DNA of 64,000 bases, taken from Minisyncoccia bacterium. GTDB taxonomy: Bacteria; Patescibacteriota; Minisyncoccia; UBA6257; JAAZHW01. Shown piece by piece: positions 2,350-60,051 of the stretch. The notes under the pieces were generated by a model. It saw only the letters and a program-made list of their open reading frames with translations. It did not search any database and had not been told where the DNA came from. The DNA lies in contig JBNASH010000033.1 in the NCBI GenBank assembly GCA_049720475.1, positions 3,784 to 67,783 on the forward strand, read 5' to 3'. Both the position numbers and the translations under genes were made by a program. Each line of letters starts with the position of its first letter. Position 1 is the first letter of the stretch.

Positions 2350-2931
2350 CTAATTTAAAATACTTAAATCCGAACCAATTTCATAAATTGTAGAGTTATT
2401 TCCACCATCTGTAGTTTCCAAAGAGGCATAGGCACTTGACTCTAAATTAGCATTTAATTCATAAGTTGTTAAGCTGCTTGAGGCGGCAAACACATAATAA
2501 TACCCTGAAGAAGTACTATTGGTTGGATCAATTGGCAATGCTGAAATTGGTGAGCGCAGAGTTAAAACACTAAAATTAATTGGTAGCCATCCTGTCGTAC
2601 CTATCGTCCGATAATTACTTAAAGCAGCACAATAAGCTGTTCGTCCACCATAAGAACCGCAGGTGCCAGCACTAGCTAATGGCACAGAAAGATAAGCATA
2701 GGTGGTGTAGCCGGAAAAATTATAATCCTCAGATAAATACAAATTTAATGCCGTTCTTAACGCCGCTAAATCAGAAAGTCTTCGTGAATCTCGAGATTTT
2801 TTTAACATTTCTGAAGGGTTTAAAGTAATTACAATCACACTCATTAACACCGCCAAAATAGCAATAACTATCAATAATTCAATCAAAGTAAAACCTTTTA
2901 AGGAGCTTTTCTGAATATTTTTCTTTGACAT
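2350..2931 (-). CDS. Type IV pilin / pseudopilin, a paralog of the adjacent pilin.
   Basis: LKGFTLIELLIVIAILAVLMSVIV is a class III signal peptide. There are two Cys residues in the C-terminal region. It is a tandem paralog of 1664..2227. Confidence 0.85.
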   Translation of the reverse strand: MSKKNIQKSSLKGFTLIELLIVIAILAVLMSVIVITLNPSEMLKKSRDSRRLSDLAALRTALNLYLSEDYNFSGYTTYAYLSVPLASAGTCGSYGGRTAYCAALSNYRTIGTTGWLPINFSVLTLRSPISALPIDPTNSTSSGYYYVFAASSSLTTYELNANLESSAYASLETTDGGNNSTIYEIGSDLSILN

Positions 2932-2971: not shown

Positions 2972-3361
2972 TTATTTTTTGCTTTTATTTAAAAATTCTT
3001 TAATTTTAAAAATTAAATCATCAATGGAAATTTTGGCTTTAACAAAATATTCAACCGCGCCCAATTGTTTGCCTTTTTGAATATCAGTTGTTTGTCCAAG
3101 ATTGGAAATAATAATTACTGGTTTGTTCCTTAAACTAGGATTTTTGGAAATGTTTTCTAAAACTTCAAAACCACTTTTCTTAGGCAAAATTAAATCTAAT
3201 AAAATTAAATCGGGTTCAATTTCATTTAATTTTTTTATCGCTTCATCACCATCCACAGCGGAAATAACCTCCATTTGTTCCTTTTGGAGACGCAATTTTA
3301 AAAGATTAGACAAAAAAGGATCATCTTCAATAACTAAAATTTTAGCCATTGTTTCTGCCAT
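2972..3361 (-). CDS. Stand-alone response regulator receiver domain (CheY-like).
   Basis: 129 aa with ILVIEDDP, the LLDLILP phospho-acceptor Asp, and a conserved T and K later in the domain. Confidence 0.8.
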   Translation of the reverse strand: MAETMAKILVIEDDPFLSNLLKLRLQKEQMEVISAVDGDEAIKKLNEIEPDLILLDLILPKKSGFEVLENISKNPSLRNKPVIIISNLGQTTDIQKGKQLGAVEYFVKAKISIDDLIFKIKEFLNKSKK

Positions 3362-3460: not shown

Positions 3461-3569
3461 GTTAAAAAATAAATCTCTTTTTCATTGTTTCGTGCCGCCC
3501 ATCGCTATTCTAAAAAGAATAGCGAACCGACCTAAGGACCTCATTCTCAGCGAGAATGAGCGTCATCCT

Positions 3570-5095
<1,526 letters not shown>

Positions 5096-5245
5096 AAAAA
5101 ATTTGATCTAACCCCATCCGATTATTATCGAATGGGACTAATACAACTCAAAGGACGACACGAAACAATGAAGAAAAAATTTATTTTTTGTTATTAATGT
5201 GCTAAAAACGAAAATGATAAATTTATTATCATTTTCGATAGATTT

Positions 5246-8901: not shown

Positions 8902-9108
8902 TCATTTGCGATAGACAATACGTCCTCGCTTTTCATCATAAGGGCTTAGTTCAACCACTACCCTATCACCAACCATAATGCGGATAAAATTTAATCTTAA
9001 TTTACCTGATAAATGAGCTAAAACCTCTCTCCCATCATCCAGTTGGACTTTAAAAGTGGTACTGGGTAAGGCTTCGATCACTACGCCCTCAAATTGATTA
9101 TTCTTCAT
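8902..9108 (-). CDS. infA: Translation initiation factor IF-1.
   Basis: [58 protein letters not shown]... Confidence 0.9.
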
Positions 9109-9176: not shown

Positions 9177-10892
9177 CTAAATCGTTTTTTCATCAATTAA
9201 AACTTTGATTCTGTTGGGATTTAAAGGTGTAAACTTTAGGAATTTTGGCCAGATGTCTATTTCTACTTTATTGATAGTTTTATATTGCTTTAAAAATGAT
9301 TCGAGATTATTAACATTTTTTCCTGCCAAATTATTAATGAATTCAGATAAAGAAATTCTGTCACAGAAAACCAAATTAGCAGTAACAGGAAAAGATAAAA
9401 GTTTTTTATCAAAATCAAATCGAGCAGCGCCATAATTGAATTGATAACTAAATAATTCTTTATCCGATAATTGAGAATTGCTTTTTTGGGCTTCATTAAC
9501 AAACAATTTTTTAATATCTTCTTCATTAAATACCAAACTCTTCATCGTAATTTTAGCAGTAGCCTCAAATTGTTCTGCTTTTTCATCTAGTTTTGGATTG
9601 GTTGAAAAACTGACAATTGTAATTTGTTTCGCATCAGGCAAAACAATATCATTAGAAAGCAATTTACTCTTTAACTCTTCTTCCAAAGAAAGAGAAGCAA
9701 TTTCAATTAATTTACTTTTGGCTTGATTAATATCTGATTGACCAACTACTTTTGTTGTTCCTATATAACCACCGGTCATCGGCGAAAGAGATTCAGCATA
9801 AAATTTAGTATAGCGCGGCGTCCCTTCAAAACCAGGAATAGTAAAGGTTGTTGGGCCAATATTATAAGATTCGCCGGCTTGATCAGCGACAACTTCCGCA
9901 TCAATATAAGACGGAACAATTTTTCCATCCTGAATTTTAGCGCCGGGAATTGTTGTTTTGTTTACTAATCTAAAAAGTTTTCCTTCTTTTGATAAAAATC
10001 TTGTTGTTGCCACCAAAACCTGGGGTTCGGAGCTATAAGCATTATAAATTCTTATTGTACCCCTGGCTTTAGCTTGAATAGTTTTTATTTCGGTGGCAGG
10101 AAAGTTTTGAGTAATTGTACGGGAGAATTCAAAAAATTTTACAGGGATTTTAAAATTAGTTTGATCAATCTCGCTAATTCCAGCTGTTGCTAAAACTGGA
10201 ATTTGCTCGGACCAATTATATTTATTAGAAAAAATTCTTACTTCTGCTTTGGCAATAAAATAAATAAGGAAAAAAATGAGGAGAACAAAAACGAAAACGG
10301 AGGCTGACAAAATTTTGATGCCTTTTGTAATTTTAATTTTTGGCTTGAAAGATTTTTCTCTTTTTATTTCTGCTTCATCCAATTCAACGCCGCTGAAATC
10401 TGCTTCGTCAAAATAATCTGTAAAAAATTTTTTCTCAGTATTAATTTTACTCTCCTCACCTTTACCTTTTTTAACCTCAACTTTTTTGGGTTTTTCTGTT
10501 TCTATTTTTTGAATAATTTCTTTAATCTCTGGCAATTCTTCTTCTGATCTCACATCGATTTTCTTTTCAGTTTTTTTTCTTTTTGGTGGCTTAATATCAC
10601 CTAGAAAATTTTTTGTTTTTGGCTTAGGCCTGCTTATTTCTGCCATTTCAATTAATTTCATTCCTGCTTCTTTGGCCATAGCCACAATCTCCTCAACATC
10701 GCTACTAACAAAAAGTTTTTTATCAGCAGCAGCCGCTTCTCTTTTGATCAATTTGAAATTTAACAAAGAATCGGCGATTTTTGCGTTTTGCGGAATAATT
10801 AAAACAACGGTGTCGTTTTTAGAATTAATAATTTTTTCAACGACCTCAGAAACCGATTCAGTTATATCAACATAAATATTTTCTGCTTTCAT
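9177..10892 (-). CDS. Hypothetical bitopic membrane protein. It has an N-terminal cytoplasmic domain, a K/E-rich linker, one TM segment and a ~370 aa extracytoplasmic domain.
   Basis: 571 aa with a single strong TM segment ILSASVFVFVLLIFFLIYFIA near residue 190. No family was recognised. Confidence 0.5.
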   Translation of the reverse strand: MKAENIYVDITESVSEVVEKIINSKNDTVVLIIPQNAKIADSLLNFKLIKREAAAADKKLFVSSDVEEIVAMAKEAGMKLIEMAEISRPKPKTKNFLGDIKPPKRKKTEKKIDVRSEEELPEIKEIIQKIETEKPKKVEVKKGKGEESKINTEKKFFTDYFDEADFSGVELDEAEIKREKSFKPKIKITKGIKILSASVFVFVLLIFFLIYFIAKAEVRIFSNKYNWSEQIPVLATAGISEIDQTNFKIPVKFFEFSRTITQNFPATEIKTIQAKARGTIRIYNAYSSEPQVLVATTRFLSKEGKLFRLVNKTTIPGAKIQDGKIVPSYIDAEVVADQAGESYNIGPTTFTIPGFEGTPRYTKFYAESLSPMTGGYIGTTKVVGQSDINQAKSKLIEIASLSLEEELKSKLLSNDIVLPDAKQITIVSFSTNPKLDEKAEQFEATAKITMKSLVFNEEDIKKLFVNEAQKSNSQLSDKELFSYQFNYGAARFDFDKKLLSFPVTANLVFCDRISLSEFINNLAGKNVNNLESFLKQYKTINKVEIDIWPKFLKFTPLNPNRIKVLIDEKTI

Positions 10893-12157
10893 TTTTTATA
10901 ATTTTTTAATAAATTTTGATTTAACCATTTAATTCGACGTTTTAAAATTTTGTTCATTTCCTCATATTTAGGCTCTGACACAAAAGGATAAACTAAATTA
11001 GGTATAAGGTTAAAAGAGATATTTGCGGCTCTATTATCCTCTACTTCAATTTCCAAATCAGAAAGAAATCTTTCATTATCATAATAAATTATATTAACCG
11101 GCGTTTTAAAAATACTCACAGGCCAATGGTTTTTTTCAAAACTCTCTATTAAACCAGGAAAGTTTTTCAAAAGACCTATTAAATAAAAACCTTCGATTTT
11201 TTCTTTTGGCGATATTTCTTTAGCCGTTAAGTTCACGCCATCCAATAAAATTTTCAATTCCTTATCAAATAATTTTTTTAACCAATTACTTGCATTCTCG
11301 CTTAAATCACCATTCTCATATTTGTTTTTTATTTCTGTGGCGGTTGTCAAAGAAACAGAAAGGTTTTGAGAAATAGCGAGCAATAAATTCTTTTCTCCCC
11401 AATCAAAATATTTGGCTGTGTTTAAATAATCTGTTATCAATCCGGCGCTCGTAATCGTATAACCAATTTCGACAAGAATATTTTTCTCTATATTATTTAT
11501 TAAAGAAAAAGTTTTATCAAAAATCAAATTTTTTTCTCCGATAAAAAGCAGTTCGCCACCCCATTGCTCTAAAACATTCTTTACTGCTTCCCAAAAAAGG
11601 CAGTGCATGTAAACATTCTCAACACAAAAAGAAAATGTTTTGCCGGTAAAACCAAGAGGATTTAAAACTCTTTTATCATCAATGCGAGGATCGCTTAATT
11701 TTGAATGTGCCAAAACCACATCCCATTCAGAAATTTTCATTTTTTGTCCAACAAAAATACGCTCTTTATCATACAAACGCCAAATCAGATTTAAAATGAC
11801 ATTTTCCAATTCTTCGTGATCAATTGCGGTTAAAGGATTGTCCCTAACAACAGAAAGGCGCGTTTTCGTTGATTTAATAAACGGTTGTTCAAAACTGATA
11901 ATCGCTGGTGTTTTTTTGGAAATTTTTTTAATCTCTTTAGTTAAAATTTTCACCAAATCCTCTTCTCCAAATCCCTCATCATTATCACAAAAATAATTTT
12001 TGATTTTTTTAATTTTTATTTTCTTTTTTTCAAAATCTACCAACGCCAAAGCCGCAGCTATTTCTCTCATTCCTCCAAAAAAGCAAAAAACAGGTTTCCA
12101 ATTTTTATGAAATATTTTGAACATCGTAAATTTTCCTCTCTTTATAATTATAATCAA
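10889..12157 (-). CDS. Hypothetical protein, possibly a divergent actin-like ATPase (FtsA/PilM-like).
   Basis: VEIGYTITSAGLI resembles the phosphate-2 motif (hhDhGGGTT) of the actin/Hsp70 fold. LIGLLKNFPGLIESF resembles the adenosine motif. It overlaps the downstream gene by 4 nt. Confidence 0.3.
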   Translation of the reverse strand: MIIIIKRGKFTMFKIFHKNWKPVFCFFGGMREIAAALALVDFEKKKIKIKKIKNYFCDNDEGFGEEDLVKILTKEIKKISKKTPAIISFEQPFIKSTKTRLSVVRDNPLTAIDHEELENVILNLIWRLYDKERIFVGQKMKISEWDVVLAHSKLSDPRIDDKRVLNPLGFTGKTFSFCVENVYMHCLFWEAVKNVLEQWGGELLFIGEKNLIFDKTFSLINNIEKNILVEIGYTITSAGLITDYLNTAKYFDWGEKNLLLAISQNLSVSLTTATEIKNKYENGDLSENASNWLKKLFDKELKILLDGVNLTAKEISPKEKIEGFYLIGLLKNFPGLIESFEKNHWPVSIFKTPVNIIYYDNERFLSDLEIEVEDNRAANISFNLIPNLVYPFVSEPKYEEMNKILKRRIKWLNQNLLKNYKK

Positions 12158-12165
12158 TAAAGCCG

Positions 12166-13929
12166 CTATTCCAAAATCGCTTTAATCCGTCTGACGCCGC
12201 TTGAAACCGCTTCTTCTTTAATTATTTTAAAATGTCCTAGAATACCTGTATTTTGCACGTGGGGTCCACCACAAATTTCTTTTGAATAAGCTTTTGCTGG
12301 ATCACCAATAAAATAAACTTTGACTCGTTCGCCATATTTATCTTCAAAAAGTCCAACAGCACCAATTTCTTTCGCTCTACTTAAACTCATTTCTTCCATA
12401 TAAACCGGCAGGTTCTCTTGTATTTTCTGATTAACTATTTCTTCAACTTTCTTTAATTGCTCTGGGGTAGGCTTTCCCGAATAAGAATAATCAAAACGCA
12501 ACCGCTCTTCATTGATATGACTACCTCTTTGTTTAACTTCCTCACCTAAAACTTCTCTTAAAGCTTTATGCAATAAATGAGTGGCTGTGTGATACTTGAT
12601 AGCTTTTTCAGAATGTTCCGCTAATCCTCCTTTAAACATCCCAGCCGATGCCGTACGTGATAATTCTTGATGTTTTTTAAATTCCTGATTAAAACCATCC
12701 TCGTCAATTTTTACCCCTTTTTCCTTGGCTATCTCTTTAATTAATTCCAAAGGAAAACCATAACTTTGATACAAACCAAAAGCATCCGCGCCACTAATCT
12801 CATTTTTGTTTTGAATAATTTTTTCTAATATATTAAGACCTCTTTCCAGTGTTTTGGTAAATTTTTCTTCTTCGCGAACTAATTGTTCTTCGATAAAATC
12901 CTTATTTTCCTTGATCTCTGAGTAAAAATCGCCATAAATTTCTAAAACAGGGGCAAGTAGTTGAAAAGAAAAAGTTTTTTGAACGCCTAACAATCGCCCA
13001 AACCGAACCGCTCGACGAATTAACCTTCTTAAAATATATCCCCTTTCCACATTCGATGGTTCTAACTTTTCAGCCAGCAAAAAAATAGCTGCTTTTAAAT
13101 GATCGGCAATAATTCTAAATTCTCTTGCATATTCACTATATTTTTTGCCAGTAATTTCCTCGATTTTTTTAATCAATGGTTCAAAAAGCTCGGTTTCAAA
13201 AACTGTTGGCAAACCATTAATGGCAGCAAGCGTTCTTTCTAACCCCATTCCCGTATCAACATTTTTTTGTTTCAAAACTTCATAAGTACCATCGGCTTTG
13301 CGATTATAAGTCATAAAAACATTATTCCAAATTTCTACCCAGTTAGGATTTTTTGGGTCAAAATTTTTTGGCGCTGGCTCATTAGAAATCCAATAAAAAA
13401 TTTCTGAATCAGGACCACAGGGTCCGGTTTCACCAATCGGCCCCCACCAATTATCTTTTTTGCCCAAAAAAGCAATCCGCTCCGCCGGAATACCTGAGCG
13501 GCGCCAGATTTGATAAGATTCCTCATCTTTCGGCGCATCTTCATCGCCACCAAAACAAGTCACCGCCAACCGATTTTTATCTAATGCCAGCCATTGGGGC
13601 GAAGTTAAAAATTCCAGACTCCAACTAAGCGATTCTTCTTTAAAATAATCACCCAAAGACCAATTGCCTAACATTTCAAAAAAAGTTAAATGTGAAGCAT
13701 CGCCCACTTCTTCAATATCATCAGTTCTCAAACATTTTTGAACATCACACAATCGCTTGCCCGCTGGATGCTTTTCACCAAGCAAAAAAGGAATTAAAGG
13801 ATGCATCCCGGCCGTCGTAAAAAGAACACTTGGATCGTTTTCTGGAATTAAAGGAGCCGAGGGTAATCTTTTGTGTCCTCTTTCTTCAAAAAATTTTAAA
13901 AATTTTTCTCGCAATTCATTTCCTCTCAT
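12166..13929 (-). CDS. alaS: Alanyl-tRNA synthetase, compact form. It has the catalytic, tRNA-recognition and editing-core domains but no C-Ala domain.
   Basis: FTTAGM, THLTFFEMLGNWSLGDYFK and GPCGPDSEIFYW identify the catalytic core. HTATHLLH ... CGGPHV are the editing-domain zinc motifs. The protein is ~590 aa, against ~870 aa in E. coli. The ORF-track start at 13947 is 6 codons upstream. Confidence 0.85.
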   Translation of the reverse strand: MRGNELREKFLKFFEERGHKRLPSAPLIPENDPSVLFTTAGMHPLIPFLLGEKHPAGKRLCDVQKCLRTDDIEEVGDASHLTFFEMLGNWSLGDYFKEESLSWSLEFLTSPQWLALDKNRLAVTCFGGDEDAPKDEESYQIWRRSGIPAERIAFLGKKDNWWGPIGETGPCGPDSEIFYWISNEPAPKNFDPKNPNWVEIWNNVFMTYNRKADGTYEVLKQKNVDTGMGLERTLAAINGLPTVFETELFEPLIKKIEEITGKKYSEYAREFRIIADHLKAAIFLLAEKLEPSNVERGYILRRLIRRAVRFGRLLGVQKTFSFQLLAPVLEIYGDFYSEIKENKDFIEEQLVREEEKFTKTLERGLNILEKIIQNKNEISGADAFGLYQSYGFPLELIKEIAKEKGVKIDEDGFNQEFKKHQELSRTASAGMFKGGLAEHSEKAIKYHTATHLLHKALREVLGEEVKQRGSHINEERLRFDYSYSGKPTPEQLKKVEEIVNQKIQENLPVYMEEMSLSRAKEIGAVGLFEDKYGERVKVYFIGDPAKAYSKEICGGPHVQNTGILGHFKIIKEEAVSSGVRRIKAILE

Positions 13930-13957
13930 AATTTTTATTCTAATCATTTTTTTAAAA

Positions 13958-13990
13958 AAGAAAAATCCGCCCTACTGGCGGATTGACTTT
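13958..13990 (-). terminator. Rho-independent terminator for the two-gene operon at 13972..14611.
   Basis: On the minus strand, ATCCGCCAGTAGGGCGGAT is followed by TTTTCTTTTTT. Confidence 0.5.
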
Positions 13991-14376
13991 CTTAGAATTT
14001 CTACTCTTAAAAAGAAATTTCCTTCTTTTCTTTCAGCGATTTCTTCAATTTTTTCTTTTCCGACCGCCTTTTCTAACTCACCTACTTTAACCTCCACAAT
14101 TTGCAAAAATTTCTTTAAGGGCAACAGTTTGAAAACATTTACAGCTTCAACTTTCAATAATACTGGTTTAACTAATCTAACAATTCTGTTTTCTCTTTCT
14201 AAAATTATTTCTCTTCTTCCTCTCTTCTCCATTAATTTAATTAAACTTCTTTCGATTTTCTCTTCTTCTTTTTCTATGTGAGCCTTTTTTCTCCGCAGCT
14301 CCACTAGCTGCCTCCCTAATTTTTCCAACCGATGGTTTCTATTTTTTCTCATTTTGCCTCCTTTCAATCTTTTCAA
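13972..14376 (-). CDS. Hypothetical basic, coiled-coil-rich protein.
   Basis: 134 aa, K/R/E-rich, with no TM segment. It overlaps the upstream ORF. Confidence 0.45.
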   Translation of the reverse strand: MKRLKGGKMRKNRNHRLEKLGRQLVELRRKKAHIEKEEEKIERSLIKLMEKRGRREIILERENRIVRLVKPVLLKVEAVNVFKLLPLKKFLQIVEVKVGELEKAVGKEKIEEIAERKEGNFFLRVEILRKSIRQ

Positions 14377-14611
14377 TAAAATCTCTTAAAACAAAAAATC
14401 GGCGTTTTTTTAGTTCATCCTGCCTCTGCTTCAAATTAGCAATTTTTTCATTGATTTCGTATAAATCCTGCATCCATCGCAACCGACTCAACTCTGCCCC
14501 CCAAAATTCCTGTTTGCTCAATAAACTTCTTTGTAGTTCCAATCTTTGCACCTCAGTTTCCAAAAAAGCAATCTCTCTACTGAGTAACAAAATAATTTCT
14601 CTTTCACTCAT
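14339..14611 (-). CDS. Hypothetical small coiled-coil protein.
   Basis: A 90 aa ORF preceded by a canonical SD (AAGGAGGT, 9-nt spacer) and a near-consensus promoter. Confidence 0.45.
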   Translation of the reverse strand: MSEREIILLLSREIAFLETEVQRLELQRSLLSKQEFWGAELSRLRWMQDLYEINEKIANLKQRQDELKKRRFFVLRDFIEKIERRQNEKK

Positions 14612-16034: not shown

Positions 16035-16940
16035 TTATCGCCTATTTTTTCTCTTTTGCAAAAACAAATACCAATCGTAAAGCAACGGACTAGCAATAAA
16101 AATAGACGAATAAGTGCCAAAGAAAGTGCCAATTAAAAGAACGAGGGTAAAATAAAAAAGATTGCTGAGACCAAAAATTAAAAGCGCTATAAGAACCAAG
16201 ATTAAAGTTGCAGAGGTTAAAATGGAACGGCGCATTGTTTCATTTATACTTTCGTTAATGACTTGCCCAAAATCTAAACCAGGATGAGTTCTTAATTTTT
16301 CACGAATCCGATCAAAAACAACAATGGTATCATGAACCGAAAAACCCAAAACAACAAGCAAAGCAACAATAAAATTCGAATCTATTTCCACTCCCTTTAA
16401 AAAACCTAAAAGAGCAAATAATCCAGCCGGAATACTAATATCATGAATTAAAGCTAAAATAGCAGTCACCCCATATCGCCATGAAGCCATTGGCCTTGAA
16501 ACCTGACGAAAAGCCCAAGCAAGATAAAGAATGATCAAGATGATGACTAAAATAATAGCGGTGATTGATTTATTTCTTAATTCCTTTCCAATGGTTGGAC
16601 CAAAAGAATCAAATCTCATTTCTTCAATTTTGGGATAGTGCTGTTTGATTTGAGAAAGAATTAATTGATGATTTTCTTCAGAAACATCATTTGAACGAAT
16701 TGTTAGTCCGTCATTTCCATTTGGAGAAATAGAAACAAATTGATAACCATATTGCTTATAAATATCTTCGATTACTTTATATTCTATTTGGGTGTTGTTC
16801 AATTTTAATTCTAAAAGTGAACCGCCCACAAAATCCATACCGGGCTTTAAACCAAAAACAATCAAAAATACCCAAGACGCTAATACTAAAATAGCAGATA
16901 TTCCATAAGCAATTTTTCTTTTTTGAACAAAATTAATCAT
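16035..16940 (-). CDS. secF: Protein translocase subunit SecF.
   Basis: ...GMDFVGGSLLELK... with multiple TM segments, directly downstream of secD. Confidence 0.9.
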   Translation of the reverse strand: MINFVQKRKIAYGISAILVLASWVFLIVFGLKPGMDFVGGSLLELKLNNTQIEYKVIEDIYKQYGYQFVSISPNGNDGLTIRSNDVSEENHQLILSQIKQHYPKIEEMRFDSFGPTIGKELRNKSITAIILVIILIILYLAWAFRQVSRPMASWRYGVTAILALIHDISIPAGLFALLGFLKGVEIDSNFIVALLVVLGFSVHDTIVVFDRIREKLRTHPGLDFGQVINESINETMRRSILTSATLILVLIALLIFGLSNLFYFTLVLLIGTFFGTYSSIFIASPLLYDWYLFLQKRKNRR

Positions 16941-16945
16941 AATTT

Positions 16946-18241
16946 TTATTTAATAAAAACTCTCAAAAAAGACCGCGTTAAAACCACAGCTGAAAACATA
17001 CTCACCAAAACACCTATCAACAAAGTTAAAGCAAATCCTTTAATCATTGAACTGGTAAAATTATAAAGCACTAAACAAGTAATAATAGAAGATATATTGG
17101 AATCACGAATTGAAGGCCAAGCGCGACGAAAACCTTCTATTAAAGCGCGCTTTTTCTCCAAACCGCGTTTTATTTCTTCTTTATATCTTTCAAAAATTAA
17201 AATATTAGCATCAACCGCCATTCCAACCGACAAAATAAAACCAGCAATGCCGGATAATGTTAAAGTAACGGGTATTATTTTAAAGATAGAGAGATTAATA
17301 ATTGTATAGATAATTAAAGCCAAAGAGGCAACAAAACCAAGAAAGCCATACATTAAAATCATAAAAGCAATCACAACCAGCAAACCAATCAAGCCGGCTT
17401 TAATGCTAAGTTTTAAAAAGAATTCTCCTTGGAGAGCGCCCACTGATTGTTGAGAAATGAGTTTAATCGGTACTGGCAAAGCGCCAGCGTTTAAATTTTC
17501 AACCAGTTTTTTCGCCTCCTCAGCCGTGAATTTACCGGTAATCTGAGCCTGACCAGAACTAATTTCTTCCTGAACTACCGGCAAAGAAATTGGTTGACCA
17601 TCTAAATAAATCGCTAAAATTTTTCCTACATTCTTTTTGGTTAATTCGGCAAAAATTTTTGCGCCTTCATCATTAAATTCTAAACTCACCATTGGTTCAT
17701 AAGTGCGTGGATTGAAATCTAAACGAGCTGCCTTTAAATATTTACCCGTCAATAAAGGTTGCGATGGCACAAAATAAGGATCAACAAAAGCGTAATCAGG
17801 ATTTTTATTTTTTTGTTCCTCTAAAATTTTTTCTGTTTCTTCCTTTGGCCGCTCTTCGCGAAATTCTAAGTAGGGCGTTTCTCCGATCATTTGAATAGCC
17901 GAGGCAATATCTTTAACGCCGGCTAACTCAACATTTAAACGATAATCATTACCCACTTTGACCACTTCCACTCGCGGTTCACTCACTCCAAATAAATTAA
18001 CCCTTCGCTCAATAACATCGCGCAAACCATTCATTGCCGAATCACGATCTTTCGCTTCAACCTGCGATAAATCAGCCTCATAAATTAAACGCGTGCCCCC
18101 GCTTAAATCCAAACCTAAACGATACGGTTTTTTAAACCAATTGGGTAAAAAATTAAATTGGCCATAAGCAAATAGGCCACCAATAATTGCTAAAATTAAA
18201 ATGATAATAACAAAAATTAAATTCTTCGAATGTTCATTCAT
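16946..18241 (-). CDS. secD: Protein translocase subunit SecD.
   Basis: ...LGLDLSGGTRLIYEADL... with 6 C-terminal TM segments. Confidence 0.9.
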   Translation of the reverse strand: MNEHSKNLIFVIIILILAIIGGLFAYGQFNFLPNWFKKPYRLGLDLSGGTRLIYEADLSQVEAKDRDSAMNGLRDVIERRVNLFGVSEPRVEVVKVGNDYRLNVELAGVKDIASAIQMIGETPYLEFREERPKEETEKILEEQKNKNPDYAFVDPYFVPSQPLLTGKYLKAARLDFNPRTYEPMVSLEFNDEGAKIFAELTKKNVGKILAIYLDGQPISLPVVQEEISSGQAQITGKFTAEEAKKLVENLNAGALPVPIKLISQQSVGALQGEFFLKLSIKAGLIGLLVVIAFMILMYGFLGFVASLALIIYTIINLSIFKIIPVTLTLSGIAGFILSVGMAVDANILIFERYKEEIKRGLEKKRALIEGFRRAWPSIRDSNISSIITCLVLYNFTSSMIKGFALTLLIGVLVSMFSAVVLTRSFLRVFIK

Positions 18242-18773: not shown

Positions 18774-20174
18774 TTATCGCCAAGTTGGCAACCACAATCG
18801 CTGGAGATATTGTTGATCCGTTAAAGAAAGACCATAACTCAATGGCGCAAAATACAAAAAGGATTGAATAATAACAATAAAAATAACAATTAAAATCAAA
18901 GGTTTGATGCGCAAGAAAAACCATAATAAGAAGCCACTAATCAAAGTCATAAAAATAAAAGATGGAAAATAATGATAAATAAAAGCCGGCCGGGTAATAA
19001 AAACATAAGGCAAGAGGTTTAAAAGATAACCAAAGGTTAAGATGAGCAGCGGTTGGAAATAAATTGTTTTATCTTTAAATCGCAATTCATAAAGTAAAGC
19101 AAAAATAGCAAAAATAGCACATAAAAAACCCAACCACCAAATTAAAGGATTACCAATCAAATAAATTCTCTCATTCGTTTGATCACTAATATTTTTGTGC
19201 CATTCAAAAATAGGGCGATACATTATTGGCCAGCTATACCATTTCGAACTATAAGGATGACTTTGTTTAATGCTGGCATTAGCAGCAAACATTTTTACAT
19301 TTAATTCAATAATGCGTTTGATTAAATTTGGCGGTTCATATTTACCATAATATTGATTGCCCAACAAAGCGCTTTGCGATTGTGGGGATAGAAAAGCATC
19401 ATGATTTGGTCCGCCAGTATACGGCAAACTTAATAAATGGATAGCAAAAACCCCAAAATAAACCAAAACAAAAATAACAAACATTATTATTGATTCTTTA
19501 ATAAATAGTTGGAATTTTTTATGAGAAATTCTGTCCAACAACAAAATCAAAGCGCCGACAGCAACAAAAACCAAAGCCGTCCACTTGACCAAAACGCTAG
19601 CTGTTAAAAATAAACTGGCCAAGAATAATTCTGGAAAAGAATTAGCATCTAATTTTTTATAATCCCTCAAACGCAAAACAAAATAAATACCTAAAGCGCC
19701 AAACGCCAAAAGAAAAATATCGGTAAAAATATAGCGCGATTGAACTAAAATGGCGTTGTCAAAAATAATAAATAATGATGCCAAAAAGCCTGGCCATTTA
19801 TTGTAAAATAATCTTTTGCCAATTCCATAAACAGCCAAAACCAAAATTAAACTAAAAAACATTTCTACCGCTCTAAACAATTTATAAAAATCGCCTTTAT
19901 ATTTATTACCAATTTGGGAGAAATCAGTATTGTTTGTTTCATCAAAACCAAAAATTTTTCCAGTTGCTGCCAAAATCATTTTTGCCAGCGGCGGATGAAT
20001 ATCAAAATAAAATTCACCTTTGAAATAATTGGTTGACCAACGAGCAAAATAAACTTCATCAAAAACAACTTCATCCGGATGACCAAAATAAGGAATTCTA
20101 GTTGCAGCCGTTAAAATAATGAGGATTGTAATCAAAACCCATTCTTTTTGAAAAAATTTAAGCATTTTTTTCAT
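18774..20174 (-). CDS. GT39/GT83-type (PMT/ArnT-like) lipid-carrier-dependent glycosyltransferase.
   Basis: A DE motif in the first loop (HPDEVVFDEVYF) with ~11 TM segments, as in protein O-mannosyltransferase-like enzymes. Confidence 0.55.
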   Translation of the reverse strand: MKKMLKFFQKEWVLITILIILTAATRIPYFGHPDEVVFDEVYFARWSTNYFKGEFYFDIHPPLAKMILAATGKIFGFDETNNTDFSQIGNKYKGDFYKLFRAVEMFFSLILVLAVYGIGKRLFYNKWPGFLASLFIIFDNAILVQSRYIFTDIFLLAFGALGIYFVLRLRDYKKLDANSFPELFLASLFLTASVLVKWTALVFVAVGALILLLDRISHKKFQLFIKESIIMFVIFVLVYFGVFAIHLLSLPYTGGPNHDAFLSPQSQSALLGNQYYGKYEPPNLIKRIIELNVKMFAANASIKQSHPYSSKWYSWPIMYRPIFEWHKNISDQTNERIYLIGNPLIWWLGFLCAIFAIFALLYELRFKDKTIYFQPLLILTFGYLLNLLPYVFITRPAFIYHYFPSFIFMTLISGFLLWFFLRIKPLILIVIFIVIIQSFLYFAPLSYGLSLTDQQYLQRLWLPTWR

Positions 20175-31324: not shown

Positions 31325-32992
31325 TTATTGACTCTCTTTATTTTCTTCTTTGTTTTCTTCTTTCTGGCTTAATTTAGCAAGTGATTCCCTTAAAGCCCTT
31401 TTTAATTCATCTACATTAGCTTGGGTTTTGGGTTTCTCTGTTGGTTGTTTGCTAATCAATTTTTTGCCGCTACTTTCAAAAATGTTTTTAACAATTTTTG
31501 TTTCTAAACGCAAAGGTTTTGTCGGCGGAATAATTTCGCCTTTCTCTACTCCGCTTAAACACGTTTTACAAAAAACCGGCCTTTTTCCATCTGGTTGAAA
31601 CGGCACTTCTGTTTCTGCTCCACACACCCAACAAAAATCAATATATGTTTTTTTCTTCTCTTTCTTCTCTTTTTTCTCTTCCTCATTATTTTCCTCGTTT
31701 CCCTCAAGCCATTCAGCGCTAATCTGTTTTTCTACTTCGCTGCGCGGCTGACAATAAATTTTTCTGGTGTTTTCTATAATTTGATTCTTAAAATTAACCT
31801 CGGGCTTTAATCGAGGTGGCAGAGTGACGGCTGAAAATGCTTTAGAAGTTATTCCATCAATCATTAATTTAAGATAAATATTGTATTTGGGCAGATTAAC
31901 TAAATCGGTTGCTGTAAATTCTGGCGCAAATTCTTTTTCCAGCCATTCTGCATCCTCTGCTCCTACTCGAAAAACAACAAAAGTGCCAACATTACCAAAA
32001 ATAGCTGCCTTTACGGATTCGGGCAACTGCCCAATGTATTGATGAGAAATAATTAGGGATAAATGGTATTTGCGCGCTTCGGATAAAATATTGGAAAAGG
32101 ATTCGGTAGCAAAAGTTTGAAACTCATCAACATATAAAAAGAAATCGGGCCGCTCTTCTGGTGGAACATCGGCTCGGCTCATCGCTGCTTGTTGAATACG
32201 CGTTATCATCATCGCTCCCAACAACGCCGAATTAACTTCTCCAATTCGTCCTTTGGACAAATTCACAATTAAAATTTTTCCCTCATCCATTATTTTTCTG
32301 ATATTAAAAGAAGATTTTGGTTGCCCAACAATATTTCTTACCAAAGGATTTGTCAGAAACTGCCCTACTTTATTTTGAATCGGCGCAATTGCTTCTACTT
32401 GAAATTTTTCATGATAACGGGCAAATTCATTAACCCAAAAATTTTTTACCACCGGATCCTTTAGGTTTGATACAATGTAATCGCGATATTTTTTATCTGT
32501 CAGCAATCGCATTATGCCCAACAGCGTTGAATTAGGATATTCAAGAAGCGCCATTAAACAATTGTTTAAAATATATTCCATTCGGGCGCTCCACACATCC
32601 GGCCAAATTTTCTTGAAAATTTCCAAAATACCACTGGCCACTAAATGTCTTTGCTCATCGTTGACTGATTCTAATGGATTAAAAGCAATGGGATAATTTG
32701 TATCGTGTGGACAAAAATAAATCACATCGTCAACGCGCTTTTCAGGAATATGCTCAAGCAATTGCTCGGCTGATTCGCCATGAGGATCAATAAAAGCCAA
32801 ACCAAATCCCGATTCAATATCAGAAATAGCCATATTGGTTAACATAACAGTTTTGCCCATGCCGGTTTTACCAATTGCATACATATGCTTTCGGCGGTCA
32901 TCTAATTTGATGCCAAATTTCACTTTCTGATTTCGAAAATTGGTCTCGGCAAAAAAATTGATGTTTTCTTCGCTGTATTTTGCTTTCTTCAT
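31325..32992 (-). CDS. P-loop NTPase of the TraG/VirD4/TrwB-HerA clade (type IV coupling-protein-like) with a C-terminal CxxC...CxxC zinc ribbon.
   Basis: Walker A AIGKTGMGKT, a Walker B-like FFLYVDEFQ, and the ribbon CWVCGAE...FCKTC near the C-terminus. Confidence 0.5.
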   Translation of the reverse strand: MKKAKYSEENINFFAETNFRNQKVKFGIKLDDRRKHMYAIGKTGMGKTVMLTNMAISDIESGFGLAFIDPHGESAEQLLEHIPEKRVDDVIYFCPHDTNYPIAFNPLESVNDEQRHLVASGILEIFKKIWPDVWSARMEYILNNCLMALLEYPNSTLLGIMRLLTDKKYRDYIVSNLKDPVVKNFWVNEFARYHEKFQVEAIAPIQNKVGQFLTNPLVRNIVGQPKSSFNIRKIMDEGKILIVNLSKGRIGEVNSALLGAMMITRIQQAAMSRADVPPEERPDFFLYVDEFQTFATESFSNILSEARKYHLSLIISHQYIGQLPESVKAAIFGNVGTFVVFRVGAEDAEWLEKEFAPEFTATDLVNLPKYNIYLKLMIDGITSKAFSAVTLPPRLKPEVNFKNQIIENTRKIYCQPRSEVEKQISAEWLEGNEENNEEEKKEKKEKKKTYIDFCWVCGAETEVPFQPDGKRPVFCKTCLSGVEKGEIIPPTKPLRLETKIVKNIFESSGKKLISKQPTEKPKTQANVDELKRALRESLAKLSQKEENKEENKESQ

Positions 32993-36527: not shown

Positions 36528-37049
36528 TTATTGAAAAAACTTTATTTTTATCGCCAATTTTTCCACAAACCAAGCCGACAAAACTCCCAAAATTATCCCT
36601 CCTAAAATATCTGAAGGATAGTGAACACCACTATAAATTCGCGCAATTCCCATCAAAACACCCAAAACAATAAAAGCTAACCCGATTTTTTTGTTGGCCA
36701 GCGCCACAAAGTAAATTAAAGGAAAAATAAAGGTCATGTGGCCTGAAGGAAAAGAACCGCTAATATCGTGAGAAATTAAATTATTTACTTGGTGAGTTAA
36801 AAATGGTCGGGGACGGTAATAAAAAAATCGGATTATTTCTGTAATAATGCCACGACTTAAAATAATGGCTGAAATCACCTTTAAAATTTTTTTCCAATTT
36901 TTTTGATAAGCAAAAAATAGATAAATCAATCCAAAAACAGCCATCAAATAAATCAAATCTTCGGCAAGAAAAACCATTAATTTATCAAACCAAGGACATT
37001 GCCCGACCAAATTATTAATTTTTTGAAAAATTAAATAATCAAGATTCAT
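36528..37049 (-). CDS. PAP2-family phosphatase (undecaprenyl-diphosphatase-like).
   Basis: KxxxxxxRP ... PSGH ... SRxxxxxHxxxD is present as RPRP ... PSGH ... ARIYSGVHYPSD. Confidence 0.7.
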   Translation of the reverse strand: MNLDYLIFQKINNLVGQCPWFDKLMVFLAEDLIYLMAVFGLIYLFFAYQKNWKKILKVISAIILSRGIITEIIRFFYYRPRPFLTHQVNNLISHDISGSFPSGHMTFIFPLIYFVALANKKIGLAFIVLGVLMGIARIYSGVHYPSDILGGIILGVLSAWFVEKLAIKIKFFQ

Positions 37050-38407
37050 AATTCAATTTGATAATGCGTCTTAACAAAATCGACCATTTTTAAAATATCT
37101 GATTTAACATCATCGGATTTTAAAGCAATAAAAACGATTGGGCGTTTTTCGCCATTAAATTGAAGTTCAAAAACCGCCAGCATTGTTTCTTTACTAACAT
37201 CGGTTTTGCCAACTTTTCCACCAACAAAATCATTATTATCCGCAAAAAAATTTAGATTTTTCAATTCATAGATTGGCTGGCCATAATAAGTGTTATCAAA
37301 AATTCCTTTGGTCATTTTGAAAATAAAACTGCGATTAAAATAAAGATAACGCGCCAATTGATAGAGATCAATGGGCGTTGAAACGTTTTCGCTTTCAATA
37401 CCATTGGCATCAACAAAATTCGTATTTATCATCCCGATGCTTTTAGCAATATCATTCATCCACTCAATTAATTTATCTGTCCCTAAATAGTTAGCCAAAG
37501 TAACTCCGGCTTCATTAGAAGATTCAACTAAAAGCAAAGCCAGCAAATCAAAAACAGAAATTTTTTGACCCGCCTTTAGTCTCGGAATGGAAGTAAAAAT
37601 TAATGCCTCTTTTGGTACGGTAATATTGTATTCTAAAAAAGTGTGATCCAACACTGCCAGCGCCGTCACCAATTTGGTAATTGAAGCAATGGGGAATTTT
37701 TGGTTTTTATTTTTTTCCAAAAAAACAAAGTTATTTTTTAAATCCACCGCTAAATACGCTTCGGCTGATAATTCAGGAATTGAGTAACGGTAACTCGAAT
37801 TTTCGGTTAATAAATCTTTTTTAAATACTAAAACTGGCATATCAATTTCGGCCAAATCATAAATTTTTTTTGCATCCTCATCAAATAAACGAATGCAACC
37901 ACCAGAATAAGAACTGTCTACTTTGCGGCCATTAGGATAATAAGGCCAGCCATGAATTAAAAAATTTCCTTCAAAAGCCAAGGCATAATTCATATAAACA
38001 TTGGCGAATCTAGAATAGGCCTTATTAAATTTAGCTTCGATTTTATATAATCCGACGGGCGTTTCAAACCAAGAACCCTCGCGACCCTTAGCAATAATCG
38101 GCACTGCTTCTACTATTTCTCCATTTTTATAAACGGTTATTTTCATTTCATCTAAATCCGCTAGAATAAAATCCATTTTTTGATTTATCATCTTGTTTAA
38201 AACATTATGGAAAAAATTAACATCACCCAATTCGGGCCAAATACCATATTGGAATTTAATTTCTTTATTATTGCCACCATCAAGTTGAATATTGTATTCT
38301 TTAACTTCTTTTTTTGGATAAAAATAAAATAAGGCAACAAGACTTAAAGCAACTATTAAAAAGCCGAAAATTAACCAAAAAGAAATTTTTTTTGATTGTC
38401 CGCTCAT
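37046..38407 (-). CDS. Fusion protein with an N-terminal L,D-transpeptidase (YkuD) domain and a C-terminal serine-type D-Ala-D-Ala carboxypeptidase (PBP5-like) domain.
   Basis: LIHGWPYYPNG...SGGCIRL is the catalytic block of an L,D-transpeptidase. Downstream, PIASITKLVTALAVLD is the SxxK motif. There is an N-terminal TM anchor. Confidence 0.65.
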   Translation of the reverse strand: MSGQSKKISFWLIFGFLIVALSLVALFYFYPKKEVKEYNIQLDGGNNKEIKFQYGIWPELGDVNFFHNVLNKMINQKMDFILADLDEMKITVYKNGEIVEAVPIIAKGREGSWFETPVGLYKIEAKFNKAYSRFANVYMNYALAFEGNFLIHGWPYYPNGRKVDSSYSGGCIRLFDEDAKKIYDLAEIDMPVLVFKKDLLTENSSYRYSIPELSAEAYLAVDLKNNFVFLEKNKNQKFPIASITKLVTALAVLDHTFLEYNITVPKEALIFTSIPRLKAGQKISVFDLLALLLVESSNEAGVTLANYLGTDKLIEWMNDIAKSIGMINTNFVDANGIESENVSTPIDLYQLARYLYFNRSFIFKMTKGIFDNTYYGQPIYELKNLNFFADNNDFVGGKVGKTDVSKETMLAVFELQFNGEKRPIVFIALKSDDVKSDILKMVDFVKTHYQIEL

Positions 38408-57537: not shown

Positions 57538-60051
57538 TTAGAAAAGTTTATCCCATTGTTCGTTTTCAACTAAATTAATAAATTCCTGAACATCAGTTGC
57601 ATAACGCGAATCAATTTTTAAAACTTGTTTCGCATATTCGATAGCCTTTTCTTTATTATGTAACTGAGCGTAAGCAGCAGCTAATTTAATAATTATTTGG
57701 AGGCGATTTTTTTGATATTGATTAGCTTTTTCTAAATAGGCAATAACTTTATTGATATGTTCTGGATCTTTAGGTGGATTGCTAATTTCTACAAAAATAG
57801 CCAAATCAATTAACCCTTTGACTTTATTTAACAGAAGGCCTTTTTGGAAAGCCGACAATTTTTTATCTTGAAGCATTGCTTCTGTTTTTTCAATTTCTTG
57901 ATCCACTAAATTAATTAACTTTCCTTGTTGCTGAAAATAAGAAACTTGCGGCATAACATTCATAATGAAATCAGAGGTATTTTCCAAAGAAAACTCATAG
58001 CCATTATCAAAAGCAGTGTTCATATATTTGAAAATTTCCTCCTCGCTTTTTTGATCTTGAATAGCCAAAACTGCCTTCAACCACCAAGCGGGTGCATATT
58101 TAGGAGTTTTCTCTAGCATTTCTGATAATTCCTGTTGTGTTTTTTCTTTTGTTGGCTGACTCAAAACATATTGCAAAATCAAATCGCTTCTTTTCGGATA
58201 ATTTTTCTTCAAAAAACCAAAATATTCATCCATTTCATTTAGGTATAACTGTCTTTCTGTTTCTGATAAATTAGGAAGTTTTGGCATTTGCGAGGCAATA
58301 TAGCTCAAATAAACATAAAAATCTACCATTGGCTCTCTTTTATAACCCGATAGTAATTGATCTTTAATCTTTTCATAATCTTTAATTACTTGATTCGTGT
58401 CAATTTTAATCTGACCAGAGTTGGCATAGGATAAATAAGAAAAGAAGTAATCGGCCCAAGGCTTTTTTATTTCGGTATTAATGAAAGTGTTCAAATTGAC
58501 CGCCTTCTCAAAAATTACAAATCTCCCTTCTAAATCCTGGGGGTTAACCCGATTTGCTTCAAAAACTAATTGGGCGGCCTTATAAGGTTTGTAATCAACA
58601 TGATAAAAGATAAAGGCGGCCACCAATAAAAACGCTCCTATTACTAATACATCCAAAACATCGAGCGAGTTTTTGGAAATAAATTTTTTTGACTCATTTT
58701 TATCATCAATGATATTTTTTCGAATTTTTATATTAGTAGTTGATAAATTGATAAATGCTAAAAAGAAATAGAAAAAGATTGAGTTAGCTGGCGTATCAAA
58801 AACAAAAAAGTTATGAACATTATAGGCTATAAACAAAGAAAAAATGATGATCCAACTAATTTTATCTTTTAATGTTTCGGATGATTTAACTTTTTTATAA
58901 ATCAAATACCCGACCACAAACAACAAAAATAAATAAGCTAGAAAACCAACTATTCCATTCATCACTAAGACATCAAAAAATTTATTATGCGCTCTATCAA
59001 AACGTTCATGACTTAAGGCATAATCATTGGCATCATAATGACTATCAAAAACAGCATAATACATATCTTGGCCATAACCAAAAATAGGTCTTTCTTTCCA
59101 CCAATTAAAACTGCGCTGCCAATTTAAAATACGGGCGCGCGTCGAAGCATCGGACAAAGAAATACTGGCCAAACGACCGATAAAAGGAATTTTTTCGCTA
59201 ATAACACTTTTTTGAATTTTGGGTTGAAAAACAAAAAACAAAACACCCAAAATAATAATCGCGACGGCAACAATAGCACTAATTTTTTTGTATTTTTTAT
59301 CAGGAATAGTAAAAATACTCAAAATTAACCCAACAAACAATCCCAAACCCAAACCTAAAATAGAACCGCGCGTCTGAGCCCACCAAAAAACGAAAAACGA
59401 AACAATGCCCATTATTAATACTAAATTTTTTTGCTGTTTAAACTCAGATTGCTGAATAAAATTAAGATAATACCAAACGATTAAAAACAAATGCACGAGC
59501 AAAAAGCCGGCAAAGAATGTTGGATTGCCAAAAACACCACCGGGCCGGGACAAATTTTCACCTCCCACTACCGGCACAATTTTTAAAATTTCCAAAATAG
59601 GAAAAATAGCGCCAAAAAAACTAATACAAATCGAAGTAAAAATTAATTTGCGGATCGCTTCTTTATCTTCAAAAAAAATCGAAGAAATGGCTAAAAAGAA
59701 AACATAAAAATGAAGCAAAGAAATAAAACCCTCCATTCGCTCAGCATTACCCCAAAAACTACGATAAGGAACAAGGCTAAAAATACAACTAATTAAAATG
59801 GCTAGATAAAAAATTGAGATGGCAATCGTTAAGAGATTAAAATGCGGCTTATATTTTTGAAAATTAATCACCATTAAAATTACCCAGACAAACAAAAGCA
59901 AAAGGACAAAAAACTGAAAAGGAAACATTTTGCCTAAAATAAATGGCCTTAAAATATTAGGCAAAAACATTAATGCGGAAAATAAAGCCGCGCCCACCAA
60001 GAAAAAAGCAACTTTTTTTAAATTTTTCTCCAGAGAAATTAATTGGTTCAT
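57538..60051 (-). CDS. Large membrane protein with an O-antigen ligase-like (Wzy_C) domain and C-terminal TPR repeats.
   Basis: About 12 TM segments, with a Wzy_C-like loop (WWAQTRGSILGLGLGLF). The C-terminal ~350 aa are TPR-like helical repeats. Confidence 0.55.
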   Translation of the reverse strand: MNQLISLEKNLKKVAFFLVGAALFSALMFLPNILRPFILGKMFPFQFFVLLLLFVWVILMVINFQKYKPHFNLLTIAISIFYLAILISCIFSLVPYRSFWGNAERMEGFISLLHFYVFFLAISSIFFEDKEAIRKLIFTSICISFFGAIFPILEILKIVPVVGGENLSRPGGVFGNPTFFAGFLLVHLFLIVWYYLNFIQQSEFKQQKNLVLIMGIVSFFVFWWAQTRGSILGLGLGLFVGLILSIFTIPDKKYKKISAIVAVAIIILGVLFFVFQPKIQKSVISEKIPFIGRLASISLSDASTRARILNWQRSFNWWKERPIFGYGQDMYYAVFDSHYDANDYALSHERFDRAHNKFFDVLVMNGIVGFLAYLFLLFVVGYLIYKKVKSSETLKDKISWIIIFSLFIAYNVHNFFVFDTPANSIFFYFFLAFINLSTTNIKIRKNIIDDKNESKKFISKNSLDVLDVLVIGAFLLVAAFIFYHVDYKPYKAAQLVFEANRVNPQDLEGRFVIFEKAVNLNTFINTEIKKPWADYFFSYLSYANSGQIKIDTNQVIKDYEKIKDQLLSGYKREPMVDFYVYLSYIASQMPKLPNLSETERQLYLNEMDEYFGFLKKNYPKRSDLILQYVLSQPTKEKTQQELSEMLEKTPKYAPAWWLKAVLAIQDQKSEEEIFKYMNTAFDNGYEFSLENTSDFIMNVMPQVSYFQQQGKLINLVDQEIEKTEAMLQDKKLSAFQKGLLLNKVKGLIDLAIFVEISNPPKDPEHINKVIAYLEKANQYQKNRLQIIIKLAAAYAQLHNKEKAIEYAKQVLKIDSRYATDVQEFINLVENEQWDKLF

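Follow-up and report, generated by a model that had tools for sequence, protein, structure and literature searches.

Between alaS and infA, on the minus strand of the 64,000-nucleotide stretch of DNA analysed here (positions 3,784 to 67,783 of contig JBNASH010000033.1, assembly GCA_049720475.1; hereafter the window), a Minisyncoccia bacterium encodes two overlapping genes, which we call A and B. The protein encoded by A is, to judge from its predicted structure, an actin-fold protein of the FtsA/PilM class, and that encoded by B is a bitopic membrane protein with a large outer domain. We favour, with moderate confidence, the view that both form a two-protein membrane-spanning module typical of Paceibacteria/Minisyncoccia-type Patescibacteria, which would work in the manner of PilM-PilN/GspL or FtsA-FtsN. 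The original prediction, made from the DNA letters alone, had proposed two open reading frames (ORFs) overlapping by 4 nt on this strand, and both are real genes at those positions: homologues of A are found down to E=1e-256 and the databases hold at least 400 homologues of B, all unnamed. The two proteins are identical to the NCBI entries ACPLKV_00955 and ACPLKV_00950 of a metagenome-assembled genome (MAG) of low GC content (~33%; Minisyncoccia/Paceibacteria), and our literature searches retrieved no description of the pair.

The gene pair is widespread and its surroundings are strongly conserved. A scan with peptide patterns, derived from an alignment of 14 B sequences and by its nature giving a minimum estimate, found B encoded in at least 413 species-representative genomes, and the 80 B loci that we retrieved all belong to Patescibacteria-type MAGs, including Portnoy-, Harrison-, Lipton- and Colwellbacteria as well as Minisyncoccia. 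Of the 70 loci with enough upstream sequence, all from different species, 60 have A directly upstream of B in the same orientation, and most of these pairs overlap or have less than ~70 nt between the genes. Across the 80 species loci, infA and rpsM are located 3' of B almost everywhere and alaS is usually found 5' of A. This alaS-A-B-infA order, which also holds for the relative P0022, is kept at ~30% identity between B proteins and even in a very remote relative (P0152, E 3e-7; L089:8001-10538), where A has intact ATP motifs and no basic C-terminal helix, B is only 446 aa long and has no N-terminal domain, and an additional 234-aa gene precedes infA. The synteny across relatives thus confirms the suspicion that the pair is conserved, and the annotation of the window and of the related loci also bears out its placement in a translation-gene neighbourhood and not in a division and cell wall (dcw) or pilus cluster. 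In the window, A ends with ...AAA AAA TGA and B begins with ATG AAA GCA, a 4-nt overlap that would be consistent with translational coupling of the two genes.

The strongest evidence that A and B may work together is a natural gene fusion read from sequence. An 875-aa A::B protein (P0211), present in two separate assemblies of one lineage, occupies the slot between alaS and infA and consists of a motif-intact A, a linker with 'TDIV' before the membrane segment, a transmembrane (TM) helix and a B-type ectodomain; no B N-terminal domain is evident in its sequence. This fusion strengthens the comparison, which was already reasonable, of the pair with FtsA and a bitopic partner or with PilM and PilN. 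A candidate pair of paralogues in one genome (P0022 and the protein of locus L001) was rejected, as the two lie on different contigs that happen to be equally long.

Sequence comparisons alone placed A only vaguely. A single-sequence search gave a faint FtsA signal (TIGR01174, E 0.0044, 16.1 bits against an equivalog cut-off of 175.85 bits), no Pfam hit, and sub-threshold hits in NCBIfam and the PDB. The AlphaFold (AF2) model, built from 27 homologues, is of high confidence (predicted local distance difference test score, pLDDT, 91.4; predicted template modelling score, pTM, 0.88) and Foldseek matched it, over ~400 aligned columns, with FtsA (7q6d, 1e4g, 4a2b) and PilM (5eou, 2ych) at E values of 4e-15 to 1e-13 and TM-scores of 0.55-0.66, and more weakly with EutJ (2e-9), MreB, ParM and Hsp70 (~1e-6), and cyto-EpsL (1e-6). 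Subdomain 1C distinguishes FtsA and PilM from other bacterial actins, and in the model residues 83-174 of A adopt its strand-helix-strand-strand (SHS2) topology, in place of subdomain 1B. The FtsA/PilM matches and this topology confirm the actin fold that had been suspected from sequence motifs. The A family is large (421 cluster representatives at E<=1e-30 and 6263 at E<=1e-3 in an exhaustive hidden Markov model search, more informative than a word-indexed profile search, which added few new sequences) and, among its best 150 matches, nearly all proteins are 280-460 aa long and most span the greater part of the profile.

Despite this fold, A is probably not an ATPase, as far as its sequence can tell. 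Besides the window protein, P0022 and P0211, our comparison of the nucleotide-binding motifs took in 63 positional orthologues found at related loci, giving 66 members. At the sites where motif-intact orthologues have ALDIGTE, FIDxGGGTTD and LCGGGS, the window protein has FCFFGGMRE, LVEIGYTITS and YLIGLLKN, respectively. All three motifs are lost in 54 of the 66 members, the window protein among them, intact in 11, and one member keeps two of the three. The original prediction had rightly described phosphate-1 as degenerate and correctly placed the phosphate-2 (VEIGYTITSAGL) and adenosine (LIGLLKNFPGL) segments, which do align with the canonical motifs, but since these lack the catalytic Asp and the Gly-Gly, they are as degenerate as phosphate-1. 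With three degenerate motifs, the label "ATPase" loses its support. The conservation census agrees with this view, as the surroundings of the nucleotide site (around phosphate-2 and adenosine) rank with the most variable regions across the family; 13 of the 20 columns with at least 80% identity fall in subdomain 1C.

The resemblance to FtsA raises an alternative that we consider unlikely, namely that A is the true FtsA orthologue of these bacteria, relocated and fast-evolving, that it tethers FtsZ, whose C-terminal peptide is bound by subdomain 2B of FtsA, to the membrane, and that B joins it late in the divisome as a partner peculiar to the lineage, much like FtsN or FtsQ. FtsA is indeed the best curated family for the motif-intact members, the only ones to reach appreciable scores with curated models (TIGR01174, E 1.2e-30, still below the cut-off; PF14450, E 1.7e-16; EutJ, 1.8e-15), a profile of the A family matches FtsA (3.9e-10) ahead of PilM (2.7e-8) among PDB sequences, and the window contains no other ftsA. 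The basic C-terminal helix of A (charge +6 in the window protein) also recalls the membrane-targeting helix of FtsA, and in P0022 it is significantly amphipathic (hydrophobic moment 0.91, p~0.03, versus 0.60, p~0.35, in the window protein), as is, in the same test, the E. coli FtsA membrane-targeting sequence. We regard this helix as a candidate membrane- or partner-binding element, membrane targeting being plausible, with amphipathicity significant in P0022 but not in the window protein. Several lines of evidence oppose FtsA orthology, however: the window protein scores ~16 bits where TIGR01174 demands 175.85, SHS2_FTSA (PF02491) matched none of the 40 A members scanned, the ATP motifs are lost in most members, and A is missing beside B in 14% of the loci. 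An FtsZ probe (the E. coli sequence) detected nothing in the window or within ~10 kb in 85 related loci. According to a published survey, ftsZ keeps its FtsA/dcw neighbourhood in bacteria of the candidate phyla radiation (CPR) (PMC9871819), which implies a separate canonical ftsA and makes A more likely an extra paralogue than the only FtsA. Two relatives have a separate gene for MreB, ~7 kb downstream and after murA.

For B, single-sequence searches assigned no family in any library (NCBIfam, PDB and Pfam hits were all sub-threshold), its sole Pfam signal being the GlxA beta-barrel PF21110 (E 0.006). The AF2 model, built from 92 homologues, has a pLDDT of 86, with 450 of the 571 residues at 90 or above, and confirms the layout that had been read from the sequence: an N-terminal domain, a K/E-rich linker, one TM helix and an outer domain, of ~350 aa. 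The N-terminal domain (pLDDT 93-98) has an alpha/beta fold and no helix-turn-helix domain, which was also absent from the Pfam search of B. The linker (residues 88-187) is predicted to be disordered, 25 of its 100 residues being Lys and 17 Glu, and contains a short motif with the consensus [KR]-x-x-[MFLI]-[SG]-D-I-[VRIK]-P, represented in the window by FLGDIKPPKR. The D99 and I100 of this D-I motif are each kept in 91 of the 92 B homologues, and neither the B proteins that have no A next to them nor those lacking an N-terminal domain have lost the motif; in two of the latter it lies 12-18 residues from the N-terminus. The net charge is +3 before the TM helix and +1 after it, and the more positive preceding segment is consistent with an N-terminus located inside the cell.

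The conserved cytoplasmic peptide of B and the fold of A, as near to PilM as to FtsA (its top TM-score, 0.66, is with the PilM:PilN complex 5eou), suggest another possibility, to which we grant a small chance: A and B could be PilM-like and PilN/PilO-like alignment parts of a type IV pilus or competence machine, with B replacing PilN/PilO. The position of the motif in B proteins without N-terminal domain is PilN-like, the fused form resembles GspL, and type IV pili are common in the phylum Patescibacteria (PMC12281837). Nevertheless, neither the scanned ORFs of the window nor the annotated related loci (L001-L004, L086, L089 and L090) yielded pilB, pilC, pilT, pilin or other pilus Pfam families, and PilM models match weakly and only with motif-intact members (best E 1.7e-11 for TIGR01175 and 3.2e-7 for PF11104), the window protein matching neither. 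The ectodomain of B is a large beta structure not of the PilN/PilO type, and PilM is not known to carry a basic C-terminal helix. More generally, Pfam searches of the larger ORFs in the window revealed no ftsZ, ftsA, pilM, mreB, pilus or dcw genes.

The most conserved part of the ectodomain, a barrel module, resembles domain 2 of GlxA and phage baseplate wedge (Baseplate J) proteins by structure, with a shared fold, and weakly by sequence. It is nonetheless hardly credible that B is the remnant of a prophage protein or of the baseplate of a contractile injection system, as the likeness is limited to a module of ~110-160 residues, the Pfam search of B gave no Baseplate_J (PF04865) match, and the match to phrog_6 covers only ~70-110 residues (E 1.3e-3 to 5e-5). 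Moreover, B is anchored in the membrane, the large majority of the 80 species loci examined have it at one fixed chromosomal position, flanked by the alaS and infA sides of the block, and neither the window nor the annotated loci of relatives show sheath, tube, spike or other phage genes near the pair. Thus, B is not a member of the Baseplate_J family but matches it in a single structural module.

Several observations weigh against a dedicated A-B partnership. Ten of the 70 B loci lack an adjacent A, all ten keep the D-I motif, and the N-terminal domain is also kept at loci of this kind; in several of them (L025, L044, L053, L061 and L063, including Liptonbacteria) alaS adjoins B or lies within ~300 nt of it. 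Because these cytoplasmic elements persist without an adjacent A, their binding partner may be a different protein, or the gene for A may lie at another site in these genomes. In a mirror-tree analysis A and B co-varied (Spearman 0.84), also when controlling for AlaS and RpsM (partial correlation 0.45, permutation p 0.001), but the value for B and RpsM (0.59) is at least as high. Likewise, the C-terminal helix of the window protein is basic but its amphipathicity is not significant. The first two of these observations, together with the strong synteny of the entire neighbourhood, would suit a scenario in which A and B are functionally unrelated and are neighbours merely through the rigid, highly expressed alaS-infA block. 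We see only a slim chance for such a scenario, against which stand the A::B fusion in the same slot, the overlap in the window and the very short gaps in most loci, and a complementary architecture, with a membrane-proximal actin-fold scaffold and a bitopic protein with conserved cytoplasmic elements, that fits known partner systems. We also considered the C-terminal helix of A and the N-terminal domain of B as a matched binding pair and rejected the idea, as there was little variation to judge by and the loci L056 and L074 speak against it.

In the two-protein module that we favour, A would no longer bind or hydrolyse ATP in the window lineage and in most others sampled, as its sequence suggests, and would instead serve as a cytoplasmic scaffold, with the conserved 1C subdomain and the basic C-terminal helix as its working parts. 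We infer that A may dock on the cytoplasmic part of B, namely on the nearly invariant basic D-I-x-P linker motif, perhaps aided by the N-terminal domain; by analogy, this docking would resemble that of PilM with the N-terminal peptide of PilN, or of FtsA with FtsN. On the outside of the membrane, B would in turn display its beta domain, which resembles baseplate wedges and GlxA and could form an oligomeric platform in the envelope, and the pair would be co-expressed with housekeeping translation genes. Because of this housekeeping linkage and the absence of pilus and phage genes nearby, the pair most likely has a constitutive envelope function, in growth, division or surface architecture and shape, rather than being part of a pilus or of a phage-derived device. 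A bolder proposal, which we hold to be quite improbable, is that the pair constitutes the core of an unrecognised, lineage-wide envelope machine of Paceibacteria in which an ATP-less actin-fold protein organises, on the outside, rings or platforms of a baseplate-wedge-like protein. If true, this machine could divide or shape the cell in a way specific to the lineage, or could serve these ultrasmall episymbionts in contact with their hosts, and the ancestral, dynamic form would survive in the few lineages whose A has remained ATP-competent.

Patescibacteria account for a large share of bacterial diversity and their cell biology is almost unknown. A and B are one of the few lineage-wide conserved gene pairs without assigned function, located in a housekeeping operon, and can now be split into recognisable parts, among which the D-I motif, subdomain 1C and the C-terminal helix provide specific, testable contacts. 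The family offers a natural series of FtsA-like proteins, from ATP-competent to ATP-dead, in which the loss of enzymology from actin-fold scaffolds could be traced, and B would represent a cellular, non-phage use of the baseplate-wedge barrel. Our results also call for caution in annotating A genes as ftsA.

The features of the locus are listed in the table. The original prediction gave A a length of 422 aa, starting from an upstream TTG; the start is most likely the ATG at 12124, yielding 411 aa, as indicated by the sequence GAGAGGAAAA, a ribosome-binding site 8 nt upstream, and by the homologues, of 406-414 aa, which begin at the equivalent residue in the alignment.

Table. Features of the A-B locus, with coordinates in the window (position 1 is its first nucleotide).
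Feature	Position	Strand	Basis
alaS, conserved neighbour upstream (context)	12166..13947	-	ORF list, synteny
Alternative start of A at upstream TTG 12157, giving 422 aa	10889..12157 (ORF as listed)	-	ORF list
Ribosome-binding site GAGAGGAAAA, 8 nt 5' of the ATG of A	12131..12140	-	direct sequence reading
Gene A, 411-aa predicted FtsA/PilM-class actin-fold protein with degenerate nucleotide motifs	10889..12124	-	ORF, ribosome-binding site and ATG, AF2 model, Foldseek
Degenerate phosphate-1, A residues 13-21, FCFFGGMRE (ALDIGTE in motif-intact orthologues)	12062..12088	-	alignments
Subdomain 1C, A residues 80-175, SHS2 topology, most conserved part of the family (R94, R122, D149, P156, G158, F159)	11600..11887	-	model, conservation census
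Degenerate phosphate-2, A residues 217-229, LVEIGYTITSAGL (FIDxGGGTTD in motif-intact orthologues)	11438..11476	-	alignments
Degenerate adenosine motif, A residues 313-324, FYLIGLLKNFPG (LLCGGGSxLPG in motif-intact orthologues)	11153..11188	-	alignments
Basic C-terminal helix, A residues 391-411, NKILKRRIKWLNQNLLKNYKK (conserved R396, W400, L401)	10892..10954	-	alignments, conservation census
ATGA overlap of A stop and B start	10889..10892	-	sequence
Gene B, 571-aa bitopic membrane protein	9177..10892	-	ORF, AF2 model, at least 400 homologues
Cytoplasmic alpha/beta domain, B residues 1-87, beta-alpha-beta-alpha-beta-alpha	10632..10892	-	AF2 model
Linker motif FLGDIKPPKR, B residues 96-105	10578..10607	-	homologue alignment
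Single TM helix, B residues 190-213	10254..10325	-	AF2 model, charge count
Beta-rich extracytoplasmic domain (~350 aa), B residues 215-566	9195..10250	-	
Barrel module, most conserved ectodomain part, B residues ~270-380	9753..10085	-	likeness to domain 2 of GlxA and to baseplate wedge (Baseplate J) proteins of phages
infA, conserved neighbour downstream, heads the rpsM-rpsK-rpsD-rpoA-rplQ block (context)	8902..9108	-	ORF list, synteny

According to the ORF list, the gene order on the minus strand is alaS, A, B, infA, rpsM, rpsK, rpsD, rpoA, rplQ, rplM and rpsI. A complete 16S rRNA gene (3569..5099, minus strand) lies directly 3' of rpsI; since there is no 23S gene beside it and the protein-coding ORFs 2972..3361 and 2350..2931 come after it, the rRNA genes appear to be unlinked. 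On the other side, two small K/E/R-rich ORFs (13972..14376 and 14339..14611, minus strand) are found just 5' of alaS, and a strong hairpin followed by a T-run (13984..13964) sits between them and alaS. Sites resembling promoters or terminators showed no enrichment relative to shuffled sequence and were left out of the evidence. PADLOC detected no defence-system match for the A and B of the window; P0022 has one weak stretch of similarity to PDC-M61B (E 3e-5).

The minus strand of the window also encodes several proteins with envelope or secretion domains. They include a TrwB-like type IV secretion coupling protein with a treble-clef zinc finger (31325..32992; PF10412 and PF23477), a gene type found again a few kb upstream of alaS in relatives (L002:1-104 and L086:2145-3911), and a 453-aa protein (37046..38407) combining YkuD L,D-transpeptidase and S11 D-Ala-D-Ala carboxypeptidase domains in one chain. 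A PMT-family protein O-mannosyltransferase (18774..20174), near secD/secF (16035..18241), hints at glycosylation of cell-surface proteins. An 837-aa membrane protein carrying a Wzy_C (O-antigen ligase) domain is encoded at 57538..60051; it differs from the 865-aa protein with TPR-family Pfam hits and hydrophobic stretches that is inserted between alaS and A in a related locus (L086:7341-9938).

Compared with known systems, the ectodomain of B shares its ~110-160-residue beta-barrel module with Baseplate J, gp47 and gp6-type wedge proteins and with domain 2 of GlxA (PF21110), although one module alone matches and B is a membrane-anchored, chromosomal protein in a housekeeping context without a tail-like gene cluster. 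The pair is also like MreB-RodZ in that a bacterial actin homologue is accompanied by a bitopic protein whose one TM helix separates a folded cytoplasmic domain and a basic linker from a beta-rich outer part, but A belongs, by its modelled fold, to the FtsA/PilM class, and the N-terminal domain of B is alpha/beta and not a helix-turn-helix. In GspL/EpsL of type II secretion systems, an actin-like cytoplasmic domain devoid of nucleotide binding is joined in one chain to a TM helix and an outer part, an architecture that the fusion P0211 shares, whereas the window pair is split into two genes, has no type II secretion context and a different periplasmic fold, and cyto-EpsL is only a weak fold match to A. 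In PilM-PilN(-PilO), an FtsA-like cytoplasmic protein is likewise encoded directly 5' of a bitopic protein, and the short conserved N-terminal cytoplasmic peptide of PilN docks on PilM, in its 1A/1C groove, much as FtsA binds FtsN. However, no pilus genes are close to A and B, B is three times the size of PilN and has an unrelated ectodomain, its motif lies 60-90 residues from the TM helix, and A has lost the motifs of PilM, which binds ATP. A falls within neither the curated FtsA nor the curated PilM family because its scores stay under the thresholds, its ATP motifs are degenerate and its gene context is different; its scores, lost motifs and lack of ftsZ/dcw linkage set it apart from FtsA, and the folded cytoplasmic domain and large baseplate/GlxA-like ectodomain of B, instead of SPOR or similar domains, set B apart from the FtsA partners. 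FtsA nevertheless shares with A the actin fold with a 1C (SHS2-type) subdomain and a conserved basic C-terminal helix, it is the best curated sequence match of the motif-intact members and, with FtsN and ZipA, it is also paired with bitopic proteins bearing a conserved cytoplasmic peptide.

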